This document shows, in pieces, positions 7,007 through 29,948 of a stretch of DNA of 44,072 bases (its first letter is position 1; each line of letters starts with the position of its first letter). Location of the stretch: IMG/VR virus record IMGVR_UViG_3300045988_043987; one strand, given 5' to 3'. The stretch comes from a virus (lineage: Duplodnaviria; Heunggongvirae; Uroviricota; Caudoviricetes). The notes beneath the pieces were generated by a model. That model made no database searches. It saw only the letters and a program-made list of their open reading frames with translations, and was not told the DNA's origin. Both the position numbers and the translations under genes were made by a program.

Positions 7007-7038
7007 AAAGGCCCCTTATGGGGCCTTAATTTTATTTA
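7007..7038. terminator. bidirectional intrinsic terminator
   Basis: AAAAGGCCCC-TTAT-GGGGCCTT followed by AATTTTATTT. Confidence 0.7.
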
Positions 7039-13086: not shown

Positions 13087-13499
13087 TGGGCTACTTTGAG
13101 GACTTAACCAAAGCGTTCGATGTGCCACTGGTAGCCTTCGGAACCACCAACGGCATCAAGGTCGCGCTTGAAAATATCGACGCGCCAACGTCAACCAATA
13201 CCCCGTATCTGGCAAGTTACATGTTGCTGGCGGATACGGAACAGGCGGATTTGTTCTTCACGGAACAACGCGCCGGTGTTTATCAGGTAGACATTAACTA
13301 CGCATCGGTGAAAGGTAGCGCGCCAATCAATAAAATGGCAGACTTACTTAACACGGCGTTTAAAGCAGGTAAGTCATTTTCGCGTAACGACATCTGCGCC
13401 GAGGTTCAATCGGTTAGCCTGGGGCCGCTAATTGTAGAAAACGGATGGGCCAAACGACCATTGTCAATTAACTTTATTGCATTCACCAAGAGGCTGTGA
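13083..13499 (+). CDS. tail completion/terminator protein (putative)
   Basis: ORF immediately upstream of tail tube gene. Confidence 0.5.
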   Translation: MMGYFEDLTKAFDVPLVAFGTTNGIKVALENIDAPTSTNTPYLASYMLLADTEQADLFFTEQRAGVYQVDINYASVKGSAPINKMADLLNTAFKAGKSFSRNDICAEVQSVSLGPLIVENGWAKRPLSINFIAFTKRL

Positions 13500-13501
13500 A
13501 T

Positions 13502-14668
13502 ATGGCTACAACTCCTTTTAAGGGCGCGACTACCGCGCAATTCTATGTGGCAGAAGTCACCCCGGGCGTAACACCGACTAACCCGGTATGGTCGCCGTTG
13601 CGTAACACAGGTGGCGTCCCCGCTATTACCCGCGACACGCTGACCTCCAACGAGCTGGACGGCAGCCGTGAAACTACGTCCATCCGCACCGGTAACAAGC
13701 AGATTAGCGGGGAATACGCTATTGAGCTTAGCTCGAAAAGCCAGGACGACTGGCTGGCGGGGGCTTTAGGCTCTACGTGGCAATCCGGTAGATCTCTGAC
13801 AGGGCTATCAATTACCGTCGCACCGGCGGGCAAGACGTTCACACGCGCCACTGGCAGCTTCATCACTGACGGCGTTGAAGTTGGCGACCTGATCGCGTTT
13901 ACCGACTTAACAGGCGATAACGCAAAACCATTTATTGTTACTGCAGTAACGGCTACGGTTGTTACTGGTGCAGGTATCCAACACACCCTGACCACCGAGA
14001 CAAAAACCAGTAAGGCTAAAACTGGCGACACGCTGGAAACCGGCAACACGTGTAAGACGTTCTCTATCCTCACCTGGTACAAAGGCCAGTGCGGCGGTAC
14101 TGACGCGTACACGTTAACCAAAGGCGTGGAAGTTTCTGGTTTTACCATCGAACAGGCTGTTAACGCAATGGTAACGGGCAGCTTCCCGTTCATCGGGCGC
14201 AGCCAGGAGATTCTCGCGACGCCGCCGTCTGGTTCCGACTTCTCTTCCGTTACGTTTGGTGACGAGCCGTTCTCTTCGGTTGACGTTTCTGTGTTCGATG
14301 GGTCTACGCCGTTGCGTTGCGACAGCCTGACCATCACCAACGATAACAGCGCGTCTGCGCAGTTCGAACTCGGCAACACTAACGTAGCGTTTGTGGAACG
14401 TAGCCGCGCGGCTAACACCTTCTCCATCTCCGGTAAGCTGTACGACATGGCGATGATTCAGAAGTTTATCAACGAACAGCAGGTAGAGATTAACTCTATT
14501 CTGGCTGGGGTAAACGGGGCTATGTCCTTTAGTCTGAAACGTGCAGAACTTACAGCGGTTACACCAGAGATTGGCGGGCCTGAGTCAATCACTCAGTCTA
14601 TTGAAGGCCAGGCTACGGGCAACCAGTACCAGTCGTCTATTGTTATCCAGCGTATCACCTACGCATAA
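13502..14668 (+). CDS. major tail (tube) protein (putative)
   Basis: large ORF upstream of chaperone/tape-measure genes; AAGAGG ribosome-binding site; followed by strong terminator. Confidence 0.6.
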   Translation: MATTPFKGATTAQFYVAEVTPGVTPTNPVWSPLRNTGGVPAITRDTLTSNELDGSRETTSIRTGNKQISGEYAIELSSKSQDDWLAGALGSTWQSGRSLTGLSITVAPAGKTFTRATGSFITDGVEVGDLIAFTDLTGDNAKPFIVTAVTATVVTGAGIQHTLTTETKTSKAKTGDTLETGNTCKTFSILTWYKGQCGGTDAYTLTKGVEVSGFTIEQAVNAMVTGSFPFIGRSQEILATPPSGSDFSSVTFGDEPFSSVDVSVFDGSTPLRCDSLTITNDNSASAQFELGNTNVAFVERSRAANTFSISGKLYDMAMIQKFINEQQVEINSILAGVNGAMSFSLKRAELTAVTPEIGGPESITQSIEGQATGNQYQSSIVIQRITYA

Positions 14669-14672
14669 AACT

Positions 14673-14697
14673 AAGGCCCCTTTCGGGGCCTTTTTCT
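14673..14697. terminator. bidirectional intrinsic terminator
   Basis: AAGGCCCC-TTTC-GGGGCCTT plus TTTTT. Confidence 0.7.
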
Positions 14698-15251
14698 TAC
14701 AAACCTAATTTTAAAGCAATGTCTATAACGTTCGATTTAACGTCACCTGGTATGATGTAGGTGTCGTAATCTTTTACACCGCTAACATCATACAGATAAC
14801 CACGGCTGTCCCCCTCAAACGTATAGCCGTCGCGATGGAGGCGAACGATTCGCACGTCATGACCCGCGGCGACGATAGGGGCTACTTCGCTGGCGAACCC
14901 GCCGTCGGACACTACAAAAACTTCGTCGCCGTCTGGCAAGTTTTCAGCAAGATACTTACCGAAATAATCACTACCAAGTACCGGTTTAATGAATTGCTCA
15001 GATATAGCAATCATGAACTGACGCCGCGACAAGCCATTAAGGAAGCCTTCTGACTTTTCTTTCCGTGCCCGGTCGTCGTAGCCGTCGATAAACTCGTGGT
15101 AAGCATCCGGGCCTAATGCCGCCAGAGCGATATTGAACATTGGATTCTTGAAACTGGTGATTCCCTTCGCAAAGCCCATTTCTACCAGCGCCATAGCAAG
15201 TGTGTCTTTCCCGCAACCCGCCGGGCCATTAAGAATAATTACCTTAGCCAT
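14697..15251 (-). CDS. deoxynucleoside monophosphate kinase (T4 gp1-like)
   Basis: P-loop NGPAGCGKDT near N-terminus. Confidence 0.7.
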   Translation of the reverse strand: MAKVIILNGPAGCGKDTLAMALVEMGFAKGITSFKNPMFNIALAALGPDAYHEFIDGYDDRARKEKSEGFLNGLSRRQFMIAISEQFIKPVLGSDYFGKYLAENLPDGDEVFVVSDGGFASEVAPIVAAGHDVRIVRLHRDGYTFEGDSRGYLYDVSGVKDYDTYIIPGDVKSNVIDIALKLGL

Positions 15252-15739
15252 TATTTATCGCTCCCGTGTGGTTTTAAGTGTGTAGAGTTCCCGTTACAGT
15301 CGTATTCAGTAACCGCGTGAGTGGTTATACCGAGTCCGCGGAAATGCTTTATTACCGCGGGAGAGTCGTCGAATGCGCACAAGATTCTTTCCAGCCCGAT
15401 AGCACGTAACACCTCTTCTTTAATTACGATGTCTTTTCTGTTGTCGTGTTTGCTGCGCATTATCAGCGTGTCAAACTTAACGTTATTTTCTCGCAACCAT
15501 TTACGAGTCCCATCCTCAGCGTCGTCGCTTCGACCGGTAAGGATGATTACGGTCATCCCGGTATGCCACAGCGTGTTGCACAAGTGAATGTTGTCATATA
15601 TCGGCGCATCATCTTTGCACGCCATGTTAAATGGCCTCCAAGCCCATGTTTCGCCGTAGTTATCTTTCGGCAGCAGGTGCAAACGATGTGTACCATCTGC
15701 TAATGTCCCGTCTAAATCGAAAATTACAATATCTTTCAT
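15251..15739 (-). CDS. HAD-superfamily phosphatase/nucleotidase
   Basis: HAD motif I FDLDGTL at N-terminus. Confidence 0.7.
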   Translation of the reverse strand: MKDIVIFDLDGTLADGTHRLHLLPKDNYGETWAWRPFNMACKDDAPIYDNIHLCNTLWHTGMTVIILTGRSDDAEDGTRKWLRENNVKFDTLIMRSKHDNRKDIVIKEEVLRAIGLERILCAFDDSPAVIKHFRGLGITTHAVTEYDCNGNSTHLKPHGSDK

Positions 15740-16866
15740 CCCAGCATCTCCGGTGAAATAGTTAAACGCGCAACCTCGCCATATTCGGCGCTATATGTAA
15801 TTACGTTTGCACTGCGGCCTGACATCCATCCGCCGCGAGAGGCGTAGGCGTCTTTAGCCGCCAGGGTGCGGTGTTGCTCGACAATCATGTTACGACTTTC
15901 TACAATCTTCTGGTGGTGCAGGTGGCCCACGTGAGCGTAGCTGTAAACACTCTCGCCGAACGCTTTACGGAACTTGGCAATCATAACAGGTTCGATAGCG
16001 TCGAATCGCGCCTTATGGCCGTGATGAAAGAACAGAGTCGTTTTGCCGTGTCGCACCATCTTGTAAACATCCGGCGACGTATCGACGAACACACGCGGCT
16101 CGTTGTCGTACAGCGTGCTAAACATCTCAGCCAACCAAATCATTCCGCTTTCGTCGTGGTTCCCTTGCACGATAAGCAAGCGAACATTTTTATGCTTAAC
16201 AAGGGCCATATCAACAACACGGCGGACCATACGAATCATGTAGCGGACAAGTTTCTGATAACGGGTGTCAGCATCAAGAACATTACCACTCGCCGGTGTA
16301 ACGGCAACCAGACTATCGAAGTGCGCAAGGTCCCCAAGCAGGTTAATAACCCCTGTTCCCGCATCCGGTGCTTTCTGAAACGCGGCATCGAACCAGCGGG
16401 AGAACAGGTCTTCTGCAATCTTCATATCCCAGTCGTCGCCGCTTTCATCGGCCCAGGCCAGCATACCGAGATGGAAATCAGATACCGTGTAAAGATTGAG
16501 TAGTTTATCGTCGCGTTTAGCCCGAACGGCTTTAACAGGAGCAACGGGGGTAATCTCCGACTTCATCCCTTCGATTACGGCTTTCATCAACTCTACCTGA
16601 CGTTCGGCATCGGTGTCGGTCTTAACCCATTGCAGCTTAGTGTTGCCGAACTCGTCCACCAGTGACGACGTGCCTTTAATCTTGTAGCCGTCTGGTACAA
16701 GATGACTGACGTCGCGGCCGTGCCCTACGCCTTTCTTAGCCAGCTTCGCTTTACGGATACGAATAACGCGATCTGAGATGCCATATTTACGGGCTATATC
16801 GATATTCCTCAATCCGGCGTTCAATTCTTCCTGTAACTGTTCGTCGGTTATTTTCTTCCGGGCCAT
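15736..16866 (-). CDS. metallophosphoesterase (SbcD/Mre11-like motifs) with N-terminal helix-turn-helix
   Basis: motifs SDFHLG, GDLAHFD, GNHDE, GHLHH; N-terminal helix-turn-helix ARKYGISDRVIRIRKAKL. Confidence 0.65.
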   Translation of the reverse strand: MARKKITDEQLQEELNAGLRNIDIARKYGISDRVIRIRKAKLAKKGVGHGRDVSHLVPDGYKIKGTSSLVDEFGNTKLQWVKTDTDAERQVELMKAVIEGMKSEITPVAPVKAVRAKRDDKLLNLYTVSDFHLGMLAWADESGDDWDMKIAEDLFSRWFDAAFQKAPDAGTGVINLLGDLAHFDSLVAVTPASGNVLDADTRYQKLVRYMIRMVRRVVDMALVKHKNVRLLIVQGNHDESGMIWLAEMFSTLYDNEPRVFVDTSPDVYKMVRHGKTTLFFHHGHKARFDAIEPVMIAKFRKAFGESVYSYAHVGHLHHQKIVESRNMIVEQHRTLAAKDAYASRGGWMSGRSANVITYSAEYGEVARLTISPEMLG

Positions 16867-16904
16867 GCTTACGTCCTCGTGTTTAGGATTTGTCCTATAC
16901 TAGC

Positions 16905-17096
16905 TCACTTCTCGTTAACATTCGAGTTGCACGCCCAGATTAAAATAAACACCCACGGCAGCAGAACCCATCCGAGAAACAGGTTAGCCATGAATATCGC
17001 TAACTTCGCTTTATGGTTACGGAAGTATGCAACCAGGAAAGGTGCGAAATAGGCGAGCAGTGCAAACAGAATTAAGGAAACTGGTAAACTTGACAT
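16905..17096 (-). CDS. small membrane protein (about 63 aa, 2 TM helices)
   Basis: hydrophobic helices; AAGGGG before ATG at 17096; first gene of antisense operon. Confidence 0.5.
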   Translation of the reverse strand: MSSLPVSLILFALLAYFAPFLVAYFRNHKAKLAIFMANLFLGWVLLPWVFILIWACNSNVNEK

Positions 17097-17122
17097 TTTA
17101 AACCCCTTCATTGTTGGTGTAA

Positions 17123-17156
17123 GTGAATAGTACCCTATTATATTGGGGCGCGCAAG
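17123..17156. promoter_or_regulatory. conserved dyad operator/promoter motif, copy 3
   Basis: GTGAATAGTACCCTATTATATTGGGGCGCGCAAG. Confidence 0.6.
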
Positions 17157-17263
17157 TAGTGTGCTAGAATAAGTTTGCGCCTAGTGTCGCACACGAAAAG
17201 CGGGTGGTTCCCGTCTGGCGCATTTATCGTTAACCTGTAACCTCTTAACCAAAGGATTAAAGA

Positions 17264-17680
17264 ATGAAACTTTCTGATTTTTATTTCGAAGAGAAAGCAC
17301 TGGTAGGCAAGAAGATGCCGATTACGCTGCCGAATGGTGAAGACTCAGGAGAGTGGCTTAACGTTGTAAATACGGATGCGGATGCCGCCGTTAAAGCCGG
17401 GCGTGCTTTCATTATTGCGTACCGCCGTGGGTTGGCGCGTTTCGAAGAACTGGAAAAAGCCGCCAAAGAAACCGGCGACTATACTGAATATAACCTGGCG
17501 GTTAACGAACTGGCGGAAGACCTCAACCGGCAACTCGCGGCAGAAGTCGTAAACGGCTGGAGCTTTGACGAGCCATTCTCTAAGGAAGCGTTTAACAAAT
17601 TGCTCGATCAGTTCAAAGCATTAGGCACACAGGTAGCGGCGTTTCATAACGCTGAACGTAAAGCATTACAGGAAAAGTAG
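17264..17680 (+). CDS. tail assembly chaperone (gpG-like)
   Basis: acidic 138-aa ORF immediately upstream of tape measure gene. Confidence 0.65.
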   Translation: MKLSDFYFEEKALVGKKMPITLPNGEDSGEWLNVVNTDADAAVKAGRAFIIAYRRGLARFEELEKAAKETGDYTEYNLAVNELAEDLNRQLAAEVVNGWSFDEPFSKEAFNKLLDQFKALGTQVAAFHNAERKALQEK

Positions 17681-18045
17681 ACGCGCTGTACAGGTTCGCC
17701 ACCTACGAGTTCGTTGATAAGCATAAAATCAGAGAGTTTGATTCTATAGCTGACGGACACGAACAGGCGCTTATCGCGATGGGTGTAATCGATAAGAAAA
17801 AACGTGCAGCGCGACGGGGTGGGCCGGAATGCCCGCCCCTTTTTATATCCACCTTTGAGACGTATTGCGACATTAAGTTTACGCGACACGTGCGCGAGGA
17901 CGCTGTAGTATTGTTTGCAAGAGAATCCGTTACGTGGCAAGACCTGAAAGCCTATCTCGATGTTACGCAAAAGCAGCTTAGCCTGTTCGAGATAGACATT
18001 ATCATGGGCTTAGAAGCAATCTTTGAAGGTAGAAATCATGGCTGA
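17662..18045 (+). CDS. tail assembly chaperone T-frame extension (putative -1 frameshift product)
   Basis: -1 frame opens at 17662, overlaps last 6 codons of G ORF; slippery-like GGAAAAG at 17671-17677; ends overlapping tape-measure start. Confidence 0.45.
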   Translation, partial: SITGKVDALYRFATYEFVDKHKIREFDSIADGHEQALIAMGVIDKKKRAARRGGPECPPLFISTFETYCDIKFTRHVREDAVVLFARESVTWQDLKAYLDVTQKQLSLFEIDIIMGLEAIFEGRNHG

Positions 18046-20311
18046 TACCGCTAGTTTGATAGTACGAGTATCATCGACCGGCGTCGATAAAACCACATCA
18101 CAACTGAACGGGCTTACTAAGGCGGCGGGGGCCGCAGCAGCCGCCGTTGTCAGTCTGGAAACCGCTAAGCAGGTGTTCAGCGCGCTGGTGGACTCTCAGC
18201 GCAACTTCGACAAGCTAAATTCCGGACTCATCACGATGACCGGGAGCGCGGAGAACGCGGCTAAGGCTTTCAGCGTCCTGCAACAATTCGCAAAAGAAAC
18301 CCCATACGGGCTTAACCAGGCGGTGGAAGGCTTTACTAAACTTGTGGCCCTGGGCCTGAACCCCAGCAAAGAAGCGTTAATCTCCTATGGCAACACCGCC
18401 GCGGCTATGGGTAAAGACCTTAATCAAATGATTGAGGCTGTGGCGGACGCCAGTACCTTTGAGTTTGAGCGCCTAAAAGAGTTCGGCATCAAGTCCTCCC
18501 AACAGGCAGATACAGTGTCGTTCACGTTCCGCGGCGTAACGACTACTGTTAAAAAGAACTCCGAAGAGATTCAGAAATACCTTCTGAACATCGGCAACAC
18601 GGATTTCGCCGGGGCGATGGAGACGCGCTCTAAGACGTTAGACGGCCAGTTATCGAGCCTCGCTGACTCTTTCGACGGCCTTGTTCTTGCGGTAGCGCAA
18701 TCCGGTTTTGGCGACGCGGTAGGTGAACAAGCAGCAACAGCGGAAGATGCCATCACGGCGCTCACCGACGCCATTGCGTCTAATGAGATAGCAGCCACGC
18801 TGCAGGATTGGGTGACACTGTTCAATGAGTCGTTCAAGTTTATCTCCGACGCCTTGAACGACCTGGCATTTGACACCGAGGACAAATCCGCGGATATGTC
18901 CGACTCGCTGGGTACCATACCTGACGCTATCCGTGAGTGGTTGCCCGACATCCAGCAGACATTCCACGAGGTTATCGCGTGGTTCCAGCGCATTGACGAT
19001 TATGCCGTAGCGCTAGGGCAGACCCTTGCCGACGTGTTTGACCCGAGCAAAACGGCAGCGCTCACATTTAAAAACCTGACTGCAGAAGCCGACGCCGCAT
19101 ACGCCGCCAGCATAAAACGCGCAGAGGCAGAATCACAGGCCATTACCAACAGGTCTAAGCAGCGTAAGAAAGAAATTGAGGAGCAACGCAAGCAGTATAA
19201 TGAGCGCAAGAAGCAAGAGATTGACTTAGCCAGCCTTGTTAATAACAAGGGTGGAACTGGTGGGGCGGGAAACACCAACGACAAAGACGCGAAAGCTGCC
19301 GCTAAGAAAGCGGAGCAATTACGTAAACAGGCGCAGGATTACCTCGACACTTTGGCTCGTCAGAACAACGACGAGTTAAAGGCTATTGACGCTCAGGAAC
19401 AGCAGAAACTGGCTAAGGCAAAAGAGTTCTACGGCCAGGGCGCGTTGTCTCTGAAAGAATACGAACAAGCTAAAACGGCTATCGTCCTTGAAGCAGGGCA
19501 AAAACGGCAAGATGAACTGGATAAACGCCAGAAAGAAGCCCAGGAAAAGCAGCAGAAAGGCGACGACTTCATGGCCCAGATTATGGGCCAGAACGCCACT
19601 GAGCTTGAGCTTCTCGATATCCAGGAACAGCAGAAACTGGCTGTCGCCGATAAATACCGCGAACAGGGGCTGATTAAAGAGGAACAGTATCAGGCGGCAC
19701 TTAACGCTATCAATGAGCAGTATGCTACGAAGCGCGCCGACGCAACGGCAACCGCCTTTGGTAACATGGCCTCAAATATCGGGTCTGCGTTGGGCGAGGC
19801 CTCTGGTGCGTATAAGGCATTCGCTATCGTACAGGCCACTATCGCCACGTACACCGCAGCTATTGAGGCGTACAAGTCAACGGCTGCTATCCCTGTAGTT
19901 GGCCCGTTCCTGGCCCCTGTAGCCGCTGCCGCTGCCGTTGGGGCAGGTATGGCGCAGATTTCAGCTATCAGATCCGCACGTGAACAGGGTGGTCAGTTGT
20001 CCGCGGGGCAGGCTTCCACCATCACGGAACGCGATAAACCTGAGGTTATCATGCCGGCGGGTGCATCGCGTGTGCGCACCGCGCAGCAGATGAAAGAAAT
20101 TATGGGGCAAAACGGGTCTTCTTCCGGCCCGTCTAATGTTACTATCGTAAACAACACGAGTTCTCAAATCGGCAAAGTATCCACCGAACAAGATGATGAA
20201 GGCCGTTTGCGAATCATCATTGAAGAACAGGTTGCCGCGTCTTTGCAGAACAGCAACAGTAAGATTAGCAAGGCCCGCAAGGCCACAAGAAATGCGCCGG
20301 GGTTCAAATAA
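18023..20311 (+). CDS. tail tape measure protein
   Basis: 762-aa largely helical, Ala/Gln/Lys-rich protein; position. Confidence 0.85.
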   Translation: MKVEIMADTASLIVRVSSTGVDKTTSQLNGLTKAAGAAAAAVVSLETAKQVFSALVDSQRNFDKLNSGLITMTGSAENAAKAFSVLQQFAKETPYGLNQAVEGFTKLVALGLNPSKEALISYGNTAAAMGKDLNQMIEAVADASTFEFERLKEFGIKSSQQADTVSFTFRGVTTTVKKNSEEIQKYLLNIGNTDFAGAMETRSKTLDGQLSSLADSFDGLVLAVAQSGFGDAVGEQAATAEDAITALTDAIASNEIAATLQDWVTLFNESFKFISDALNDLAFDTEDKSADMSDSLGTIPDAIREWLPDIQQTFHEVIAWFQRIDDYAVALGQTLADVFDPSKTAALTFKNLTAEADAAYAASIKRAEAESQAITNRSKQRKKEIEEQRKQYNERKKQEIDLASLVNNKGGTGGAGNTNDKDAKAAAKKAEQLRKQAQDYLDTLARQNNDELKAIDAQEQQKLAKAKEFYGQGALSLKEYEQAKTAIVLEAGQKRQDELDKRQKEAQEKQQKGDDFMAQIMGQNATELELLDIQEQQKLAVADKYREQGLIKEEQYQAALNAINEQYATKRADATATAFGNMASNIGSALGEASGAYKAFAIVQATIATYTAAIEAYKSTAAIPVVGPFLAPVAAAAAVGAGMAQISAIRSAREQGGQLSAGQASTITERDKPEVIMPAGASRVRTAQQMKEIMGQNGSSSGPSNVTIVNNTSSQIGKVSTEQDDEGRLRIIIEEQVAASLQNSNSKISKARKATRNAPGFK

Positions 20312-29757: not shown

Positions 29758-29948
29758 AGCAAAGGCTCCGCATCCGGGTTACGCAGGAAGTACGCTTGAT
29801 AGATGTCGTGTTCTGAATAGTAAACGCCTTTGTGCGTACACCCGGCACAAACGTCACTAAAGAACCCATCACCCATTACCATGATAAATTCCCATTCTGG
29901 CATATCCACCAACGCAGCTAGTTTCTTACTAAATGGTTTGTTGCTCAT
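29754..29948 (-). CDS. hypothetical protein (64 aa)
   Basis: ATG at 29948 preceded by GAGGGG. Confidence 0.5.
   Translation of the reverse strand: MSNKPFSKKLAALVDMPEWEFIMVMGDGFFSDVCAGCTHKGVYYSEHDIYQAYFLRNPDAEPLL

Follow-up and report, generated by a model that had tools for sequence, protein, structure and literature searches.

A probable programmed −1 frameshift between the tail assembly chaperone genes of a Kagunavirus, with an invariant A_AAG-stop site and a candidate long-range RNA stimulator

In a 44,072-nucleotide stretch of tailed-phage DNA (IMG/VR record IMGVR_UViG_3300045988_043987; referred to here, at its full length, as the window) a G-like tail assembly chaperone gene and a second open reading frame (ORF), T, lie next to one another just before the tape measure gene. 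The two are very probably joined by a programmed −1 ribosomal frameshift of the lambda G/G-T type. This was the reading of the original prediction, and it is supported by an A_AAG-stop arrangement common to every distinct relative, by coding in the −1 frame between the stop of G and the first possible start of T, by a protein family built from fused sequences and by joined coding sequences (CDSs) already present in the databases. The G-T frameshift itself is thus already known and annotated in this phage group. What is added here is the anatomy of the signal, a tetramer with an adjacent stop and a long-range helix, which we did not find described in the literature.

Results

A_AAG and the stop codon beside it are invariant

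The coordinates of the original prediction were all correct, including those of the G ORF, of the −1 frame open from 17662 to its TGA and of the overlap with the tape measure gene, whose ATG at 18038 overlaps the T stop by 8 nucleotides (nt; ATGGCTGA). They are collected with those of the other features in Table 1. G ends in the codons CAG (17669), GAA (17672), AAG (17675) and TAG (17678), and the overlap of the −1 frame with the last six codons of G was also borne out. The frame is closed upstream by TAA at 17659-17661, which confines any shift in this genome to 17662-17680. This TAA comes from a synonymous CGC to CGT change in G (CGT AAA) and accounts for the six-codon overlap in the window; the overlap is 8-10 codons in most close relatives and up to 69 codons in distant ones.

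Table 1. Features of the G-T region and its neighbours, in window coordinates (aa, amino acids; bp, base pairs).
Feature	Position	Strand	Basis or remark
Tail tube gene	13496-14668	+	PF18906 Phage_tube_2, 125 bits; ORF list
Reverse-strand module, 2.4 kb, between tail tube gene and G	14697-17111	−
G-like tail assembly chaperone ORF, 138 aa, product of normal decoding	17264-17680	+	ORF list, Pfam, phrog_15027
Heptamer context G_GAA_AAG	17671-17677	+	Non-canonical (XXX = GGA)
Predicted slip site A_AAG	17674-17677	+	Invariant in 88/88 distinct relatives
G stop UAG, directly 3′ of the slip site	17678-17680	+	TAG or TAA, never TGA, in 88/88
T part, −1-frame extension, 122 codons after the predicted shift	17677-18045	+	TGA 18043-18045; frame open from 17662
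Candidate helix H1, 5′ arm CGCGCUGUAC	17682-17691	+	Starts 4-5 nt after slip site; RNAduplex −20 kcal/mol
T domain proper, Phage_TAC_18 (PF23812)	17773-18027	+	Residues 38-122 of translation from 17662
Internal ATG	17779-17781	+	First canonical start (ATG/GTG/TTG) in the −1 frame
Candidate helix H1, 3′ arm GUGCAGCGCG	17804-17813	+	112 nt downstream of 5′ arm; inside T ORF
Terminator-like hairpin H2, 9 bp (8 G-C), 6-nt loop, then UUUUU	17816-17844 (stem-loop 17816-17839)	+	Inside T ORF
Tape measure gene	18038-20311	+	phrog_1538, E = 1.8e-191; PF20155 TMP_3

The junction was compared across 91 related loci from IMG/VR and GenBank, which gave 88 distinct sequences with identities in G down to 43%; a non-redundant set of 29 sequences, less than 90% identical to each other in nucleotides, was used for codon and covariation counts. 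One further record, Salmonella phage GE_vB_HIL (L092, MG969408, flagged UNVERIFIED), was unusable as its G is broken by frame changes after 21 codons; these breaks are probably sequencing errors and not biology. All 88 distinct relatives have A_AAG followed directly by TAG or TAA, and in the 86 complete sequences amongst them the −1 frame stays open for a further 120-122 codons. Read in that frame, the last base of A_AAG and the first two of the stop form an invariant Val codon, GUA, at 17677-17679 in the window.

The triplet before A_AAG is GGA in 65 relatives, CGC in 11, GGT in 4, AGC in 3, AAA in 2 and GGG, GGC and GTC in 1 each, and a canonical X_XXY_YYZ heptamer is found in only 3 of the 88 (one G_GGA_AAG and two A_AAA_AAG). 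Because these three bases vary, the conserved element is, on this comparison, the tetramer A_AAG and not a heptamer, and canonical tandem slippage was rejected as the general mechanism as the P-site triplet is not conserved. The original prediction had leant on the likeness of GGAAAAG to the lambda sequence GGGAAAG. The heptamer is indeed present at 17671-17677, but its likeness to lambda does not hold as an argument, since only the tetramer is conserved. The exact lambda heptamer, G_GGA_AAG, does occur in a close relative (L013, positions 1908-1914), where a single A to G change has turned Glu into Gly in G, and the dnaX-type A_AAA_AAG occurs in two IMG/VR contigs (amongst L040-L091).

Taken by itself GGAAAAG is not enriched in the window (8 occurrences against 5.5 ± 2.5 expected), and an open stretch of 39 codons lacking a start is unremarkable by chance. 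The extended junction motif AAAGTARNNGCGYTG has one exact occurrence in the window plus one further match with one mismatch, where 0.21 matches at up to one mismatch would be expected by chance. The second match (AAACTAGCTGCGTTG, at 29910-29924 on the − strand) does not contain A_AAG and is probably due to chance. The position of the junction and its conservation are, unlike the heptamer alone, far beyond chance.

Synonymous codon choice is frozen around the site. Across the 29 non-redundant sequences the last Lys codon of G is AAG in every case, never AAA, and the codon preceding it always ends in A; where that codon specifies Glu it is GAA (19/19). On the far side of the stop, the Ala at +3 is always GCG (29/29) and the Leu at +4 only CTG (25) or TTG (4). 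The freezing is confined to NNA-AAG-(G)TA-..-GCG-YTG, and other invariant residues use all of their codons.

The same data bear on the idea that RNA polymerase slips on the A run, or that the two frames reflect a single G-T gene that was mis-sequenced or misassembled. There is a run of four A at 17673-17676, but no long homopolymer: four A in the window and three in the Jersey-like phages are far below the run length for productive slippage by RNA polymerase. As the two-frame arrangement is moreover identical in 88 independently assembled sequences, we consider this explanation to have a negligible probability.

T is coding before its first possible start

The linker between the stop of G and the ATG at 17779 is 33 codons long, and the 26 gap-free columns from the helix arm described below to the ATG (+9 to +34) were scored. 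Entropies in the −1 frame are 0.73, 0.64 and 1.48 bits at codon positions 1, 2 and 3 (n=29), the same as in G and T. None of the 29 sequences has a stop in the −1 frame of the linker, versus 26 of the 29 in each other frame, and the alignment of the fused protein is conserved across the junction (KVxALxxFAxW…FDxIxxGH). Measured from the first base of the G stop, the first canonical start of the −1 frame lies at +8 to +323 nt in most relatives, the largest value being found in two contigs, and in two others it lies upstream of the stop. In the Cornellvirus-like lineages the Met corresponding to ATG 17779 is replaced by Ile (ATC or ATA). Since the position of the first start varies and the internal Met gets lost, T cannot generally start on its own. 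By these measures T is a second ORF in a shifted frame that is coding from the overlap onward without a conserved start, the N-terminal part of T is translated in spite of having no start before it, and ATG 17779 encodes an internal Met of the fusion.

Both ORFs belong to tail assembly chaperone families. G matches Phage_TAC_4 (PF08748) with 27 bits against a cut-off of 21.1 and T, in the −1 frame, matches Phage_TAC_18 (PF23812) with 67.6 bits against a cut-off of 27. G also matches positions 1-138 of phrog_15027 (E = 1.8e-69), a 259-position family built from fused proteins, and T matches positions 137-259 of the same family. When searched with tblastn the T part is found in Jersey-like phages with 100% coverage from its first residue and 55% identity. 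Sequence searches of the PDB with G and T found no relative, and searches of NCBIfam no match.

The alternative that T is a separate protein, made from ATG 17779 or another internal start and preceded by a fortuitously open frame, is therefore not attractive. The ATG does exist and the Pfam T domain begins at about that point (residue 38 of the frame); an 88-aa ORF starting there is annotated in several records, and 88-aa proteins occur in the databases. The 33 codons upstream, however, have a normal coding signature in the −1 frame and include the conserved FDxIxxGH, and the comparison with related phages that the original prediction called for shows the ATG itself not to be conserved. Inspection of the sequence revealed no good Shine-Dalgarno sequence before 17779, and an internal start would leave the invariant A_AAG and stop unexplained. 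We judge this alternative to be very unlikely.

Fusions are already annotated in close relatives

Joined two-piece G-T CDSs, the work of independent annotators, are given in the RefSeq and GenBank records of K1ind1, Shemara, fPoEco01 and Smarc3, with spans of 779-782 nt, which fall one base short of a whole number of codons. In K1ind1, the DNA of which is 95.8% identical to the window, the pieces are ORF21A and ORF21B (YP_009597304 and YP_009597303), and the Shemara record carries the label 'tail assembly chaperone frameshift product'. When the predicted fusions, shifted after Lys-AAG (…QEK|VDAL…), were looked up at NCBI by exact sequence, they were found for K1ind1, Shemara and fPoEco01, while the alternative junction …QGK… was absent from NCBI by the same look-up. 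The annotated Guernseyvirinae fusions involve the same genes, slip site and junction as those described here and nothing of substance differs. They are database annotations, none of which mentions an RNA stimulator. Separate T ORFs are found in the records that we numbered L002, L003, L036 and L038 and in many other GenBank records; such listings are probably a mis-annotation that is common across the group. For the window, the appropriate annotation is a 138-aa G together with a joined CDS encoding a 260-aa G-T, in place of the separate 88- to 119-aa ORFs that are entered elsewhere as 'hypothetical protein' or 'tail assembly chaperone'.

A long-range helix begins 4-5 nt after the slip site

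Among tetramers, A_AA.G is the one most prone to shifting in E. coli, though without a stimulator it shifts at ~0.15%, barely above background, compared with 5.6% in the presence of the IS3 pseudoknot (PMC4066793). B. subtilis cdd and IS1222 employ NNA_AAG sites at which the 5′ tRNA is unable to re-pair, and first halves of the G_GA type are known intermediates (PMC5009743). A stimulator was expected here because bare A_AAG is barely shifty in E. coli. No local hairpin or pseudoknot was found: with RNAalifold, sets of 12 and 29 diverse sequences yielded nothing beyond a 3-bp stem of −0.5 to −0.8 kcal/mol, and in the window the first 120 nt are no more stable when folded than shuffled sequences (z = −0.5). 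A Shine-Dalgarno-like stimulator upstream was rejected, as the AGGA that abuts the slip site in the window is absent in the Jersey-like relatives.

The frozen block GCGYUG… begins 5 nt after A_AAG. As this is the place expected for the 5′ arm of a stimulatory stem, we searched for a partner across the whole T ORF. Such a partner, forming the helix that we call H1, was found by the duplex search in all 29 non-redundant sequences (10-15 bp, ΔG −16 to −23 kcal/mol), and in 27 of them it is at one of two homologous positions. In class 1, to which the window belongs along with the rest of the Kagunavirus group, the Ent1-like phages and others, the partner is ~130 nt downstream. In class 2, comprising SETP3/Jersey-like, Cornellvirus-like, Serratia and other phages, it is ~200 nt downstream, in the codons for K-F-I-Q-R. 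In gap-free alignments 78.9% of the class 1 cells are paired, against 24-50% in slid registers, and six pairs change on both sides (for instance UA 11 / CG 8, CG 6 / UA 6 and CG 12 / GC 6). For class 2 the pairing is 90.5% over 15 bp, against 23-50% in slid registers, with four doubly changed pairs and 18 G·U cells. Since it includes G·U pairs, the helix is specific to the mRNA strand. H1 is present in both the minimum free energy and the centroid structures of 17671-17850 of the window (z = −3.99) and of three relatives (L032, −2.69; L036, −1.87; L022, −4.38). No Rfam family matches the H1 region.

The distance of the 5′ arm from the slip site is constant at 4-5 nt, but the position of the 3′ partner differs by ~70 nt between lineages. 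A fixed 5′ arm with a moved 3′ arm suggests selection for a recoding stimulator, for which it is the pattern predicted. If GAA occupies the P site and AAG the A site, H1 would start at ~+12, which is the canonical geometry for −1 frameshifting. In its position and covariation H1 resembles the stable structure, starting ~5-9 nt after the slip site, that is expected of a 3′ RNA stimulator. It would seem likely that H1 is the stimulator that bare A_AAG needs.

The helix also bears on a second alternative, in which ribosomes terminate and reinitiate at the YUG codon 5 nt after the stop (CUG 17686-17688 in the window, UUG in Ent1-like phages) to give a separate T of 119-120 aa. Consistent with such a start, the Leu codon is restricted to CTG or TTG, the records of Ent1 and Bas74 annotate T from the YUG codon, and 119-aa proteins are in the databases. 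The restriction is, however, explained by H1, because Y is a paired and covarying position of the helix (alignment column 12; UA 11, CG 8, none unpaired). CUG is in any case a very poor initiator, and there is no conserved Shine-Dalgarno sequence, the Jersey-like phages having AACGCAAAGTAA upstream. Reinitiation would also leave unexplained why the Lys codon is AAG and never AAA and why the codon before it is NNA. Its probability is accordingly very small, as low as that of the internal start.

A terminator-like hairpin follows H1

Beginning 2 nt past the 3′ arm of H1 is a second structure, H2, with the sequence GGGGUGGGC-CGGAAU-GCCCGCCCC followed by UUUUU; it thus has the G+C-rich stem-loop and U tract of an intrinsic terminator. 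No other terminator-like match in the 44-kb window has as many G-C pairs (8 in H2). H2 is comparable to the intergenic bidirectional terminators at 7008-7027 and 14673-14692 and is positioned upstream of the tape measure and distal tail genes. The stem is kept in many lineages through compensatory variants (AAGGGGC…GCCCCUU, GAGGGGC…GCCCCUC and ACGGGGC…GCCCCGU); Ent1-like and Cornellvirus-like phages lack it. In the alignment as a whole 67.3% of cells are paired, and the observed covariation was reached by 0/500 shuffles. As a frameshift stimulator H2 was rejected, being 139 nt from the slip site and too far for a classical stimulator. Frameshifting in T7 gene 10 depends, in a way that is unexplained, on a terminator more than 200 nt away (PMC5009743). 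One might speculate that H2 stacks on H1, that it belongs to the stimulator as one of its parts, or that it attenuates transcription between G and the tape measure gene in a region that few ribosomes enter.

Discussion

Several points weigh against a stimulated frameshift of this type. The heptamer in the window, G_GAA_AAG, is not canonical; a canonical heptamer is typical of the lambda-type family, though not strictly defining. In the Jersey-like phages, with C_GCA_AAG, the P-site tRNA cannot re-pair, so that efficiency may be low. Many GenBank records give T as a separate ORF, starting from ATG, CTG or TTG and 88-119 aa long. No paper reporting the fusion protein or a frameshift assay was found for Kagunavirus, Jerseyvirus, SETP3, Shemara or K1G, and PMC3483164 only mentions the tail proteins of K1G. 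As to H1, its duplex energy is only in the top ~12% of control 18-mers of the same length from the same sequences (616/5293), its 4-5-nt spacer is at the short end of the usual range, and a helix closing a loop of 110-190 nt is an unusual stimulator. Because the duplex energy is not decisive, the case for H1 rests on covariation and fixed spacing.

These points leave room for a reading in which the frameshift is real but H1 is not its stimulator, H1 and H2 instead shaping mRNA stability, protection from Rho or attenuation into the tape measure gene. H2 resembles a strong intrinsic terminator, the T region would be left free by most ribosomes, and the duplex energy of H1 is not extreme relative to the controls; lambda G-T is not known to require a structure. 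On the other hand a 5′ arm held at a fixed distance, with a 3′ partner that has moved by ~70 nt, is predicted for a recoding stimulator and not for a stability element, and the tetramer alone is barely shifty in E. coli. We regard this reading as unlikely, though it deserves far more weight than either of the separate-T alternatives.

In the preferred reading, a frameshift stimulated by H1, most ribosomes would decode 17264-17677 and terminate at the UAG at 17678 to give the 138-aa G. A minority would slip back by one base on A_AAG (17674-17677), with the tRNA-Lys re-pairing from AAG to AAA, then read GUA at 17677-17679 and continue to 18042 to give a G-T of 260 aa (…ALQEK-VDALYRF…). By analogy with lambda, the T domain of the fusion may recruit the tail tube protein to the G-coated tape measure protein. 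H1 would close a domain of 112 nt and stimulate the slippage. The adjacent stop presumably helps as well: a slowly decoded codon in the A site would give the P-site tRNA-Lys a second chance to slip, which is the 'shifty stop' idea (Weiss et al. 1987, as cited in PMC5009743). Alternatively it may help because many of the ribosomes terminate and so never melt a long-range helix that is slow to form.

The closest well-known system is the lambda G/G-T frameshift (Levin et al. 1993; Xu et al. 2004, 2013, 2014, as cited in PMC5009743). In both there are two overlapping ORFs directly upstream of the tape measure gene, the second being in the −1 frame and without a start of its own, and both slip on …A_AAG close to where G ends, with an abundant short product and a rare fusion being expected. 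They differ in that lambda has the canonical G_GGA_AAG, while here conservation is limited to A_AAG and the predicted slip falls on the final sense codon of G. The conserved long-range helix 4-5 nt downstream, and the 2.4-kb reverse-strand module between the tube gene and G, are further differences.

The tetramer itself is better matched by B. subtilis cdd (A_CGA_AAG) and IS1222 (G_CGA_AAG), where tRNA-Lys is likewise on A_AAG, the 5′ codon re-pairs poorly and efficiency depends on a stimulator; rules for such tetramers have been given by Sharma et al. 2014. Those sites are in other genes, and their stimulators are a Shine-Dalgarno-like sequence or local structures and not a long-range helix. 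Large or long-range −1 stimulators include the three-way junction of IS911, the Tφ element of T7 gene 10 and the long-distance pairings of luteoviruses and dianthoviruses (PMC5009743). In these, as with H1, the slip site is closely followed by a basal helix, which closes a large branched domain or pairs with a far segment, and T7 gene 10 shares in addition a terminator-like hairpin at the distal element. Sequence, fold and gene are different, and the part of H1 in frameshifting is a predicted one.

More distant homologues of G, at 27-32% identity, were found in a Vibrio Queuovirinae phage (L093:1260-1290), in the Pseudomonas Pamexvirus PA_LZ02 (L094) and in the Serratia phage Tlacuache (L095:1300-1332). 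In all three a −1 ORF overlaps the end of G, by 19-38 codons, and none of the records annotates a fusion. Candidate slip sites lie well before the stop, T_TTT_TTC in the Vibrio phage and CGA_AAG in Tlacuache, and the A_AAG-stop cassette was not found in these three relatives. The G-T arrangement is therefore general, while the cassette of A_AAG, stop and helix is, by sequence comparison amongst the phages examined, found only in the Guernseyvirinae and their closest kin.

Our broader proposal is a three-part cassette in which A_AAG is the last sense codon, the stop follows, and a long-range helix with a relocatable 3′ partner closes a domain of 110-190 nt; in Kagunavirus a coupling of H1 with H2 could then link frameshifting, folding of the T region and read-through into the tape measure gene. 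We put this forward tentatively, as a possibility about which we are somewhat more doubtful than confident. If true, it would act as an attenuator setting G far above G-T and the tape measure protein, and the stoichiometry of chaperone to tape measure protein may be set partly at transcription, via the embedded terminator-like hairpin. The family is also a natural recoding series, with eight triplets before A_AAG that include those of the lambda and dnaX heptamers, a stop that is always next and two positions for the helix partner. Should H1 be the stimulator, it would provide a clean bacterial system for studying how a tetranucleotide is boosted, the distance of the stimulator arm and the reason for the adjacent stop.

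Genome context

The 901 bases around the G-T junction are 93-97% identical to ~100 Kagunavirus genomes (K1G, K1ind1-3, RP180 and others of the Guernseyvirinae), which identifies the source phage, at the level of sequence, as a Kagunavirus, a K1G-like coliphage. The gene order is tube, reverse-strand module, G, T, tape measure and then the distal tail genes. The tube gene is thus upstream of G here too, yet parted from it by the genes of the module, which according to the annotation of relatives encode P-loop kinase-like and polynucleotide kinase/phosphatase-like proteins, a DNA repair exonuclease and a superinfection immunity protein. Because the module separates them from the tube gene, G, T and the tape measure gene need a promoter of their own in 17112-17263; a simple scan of the + strand found none there. 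Directly after the tail tube gene, and flanking the module, is the bidirectional terminator-like hairpin at 14673-14692.

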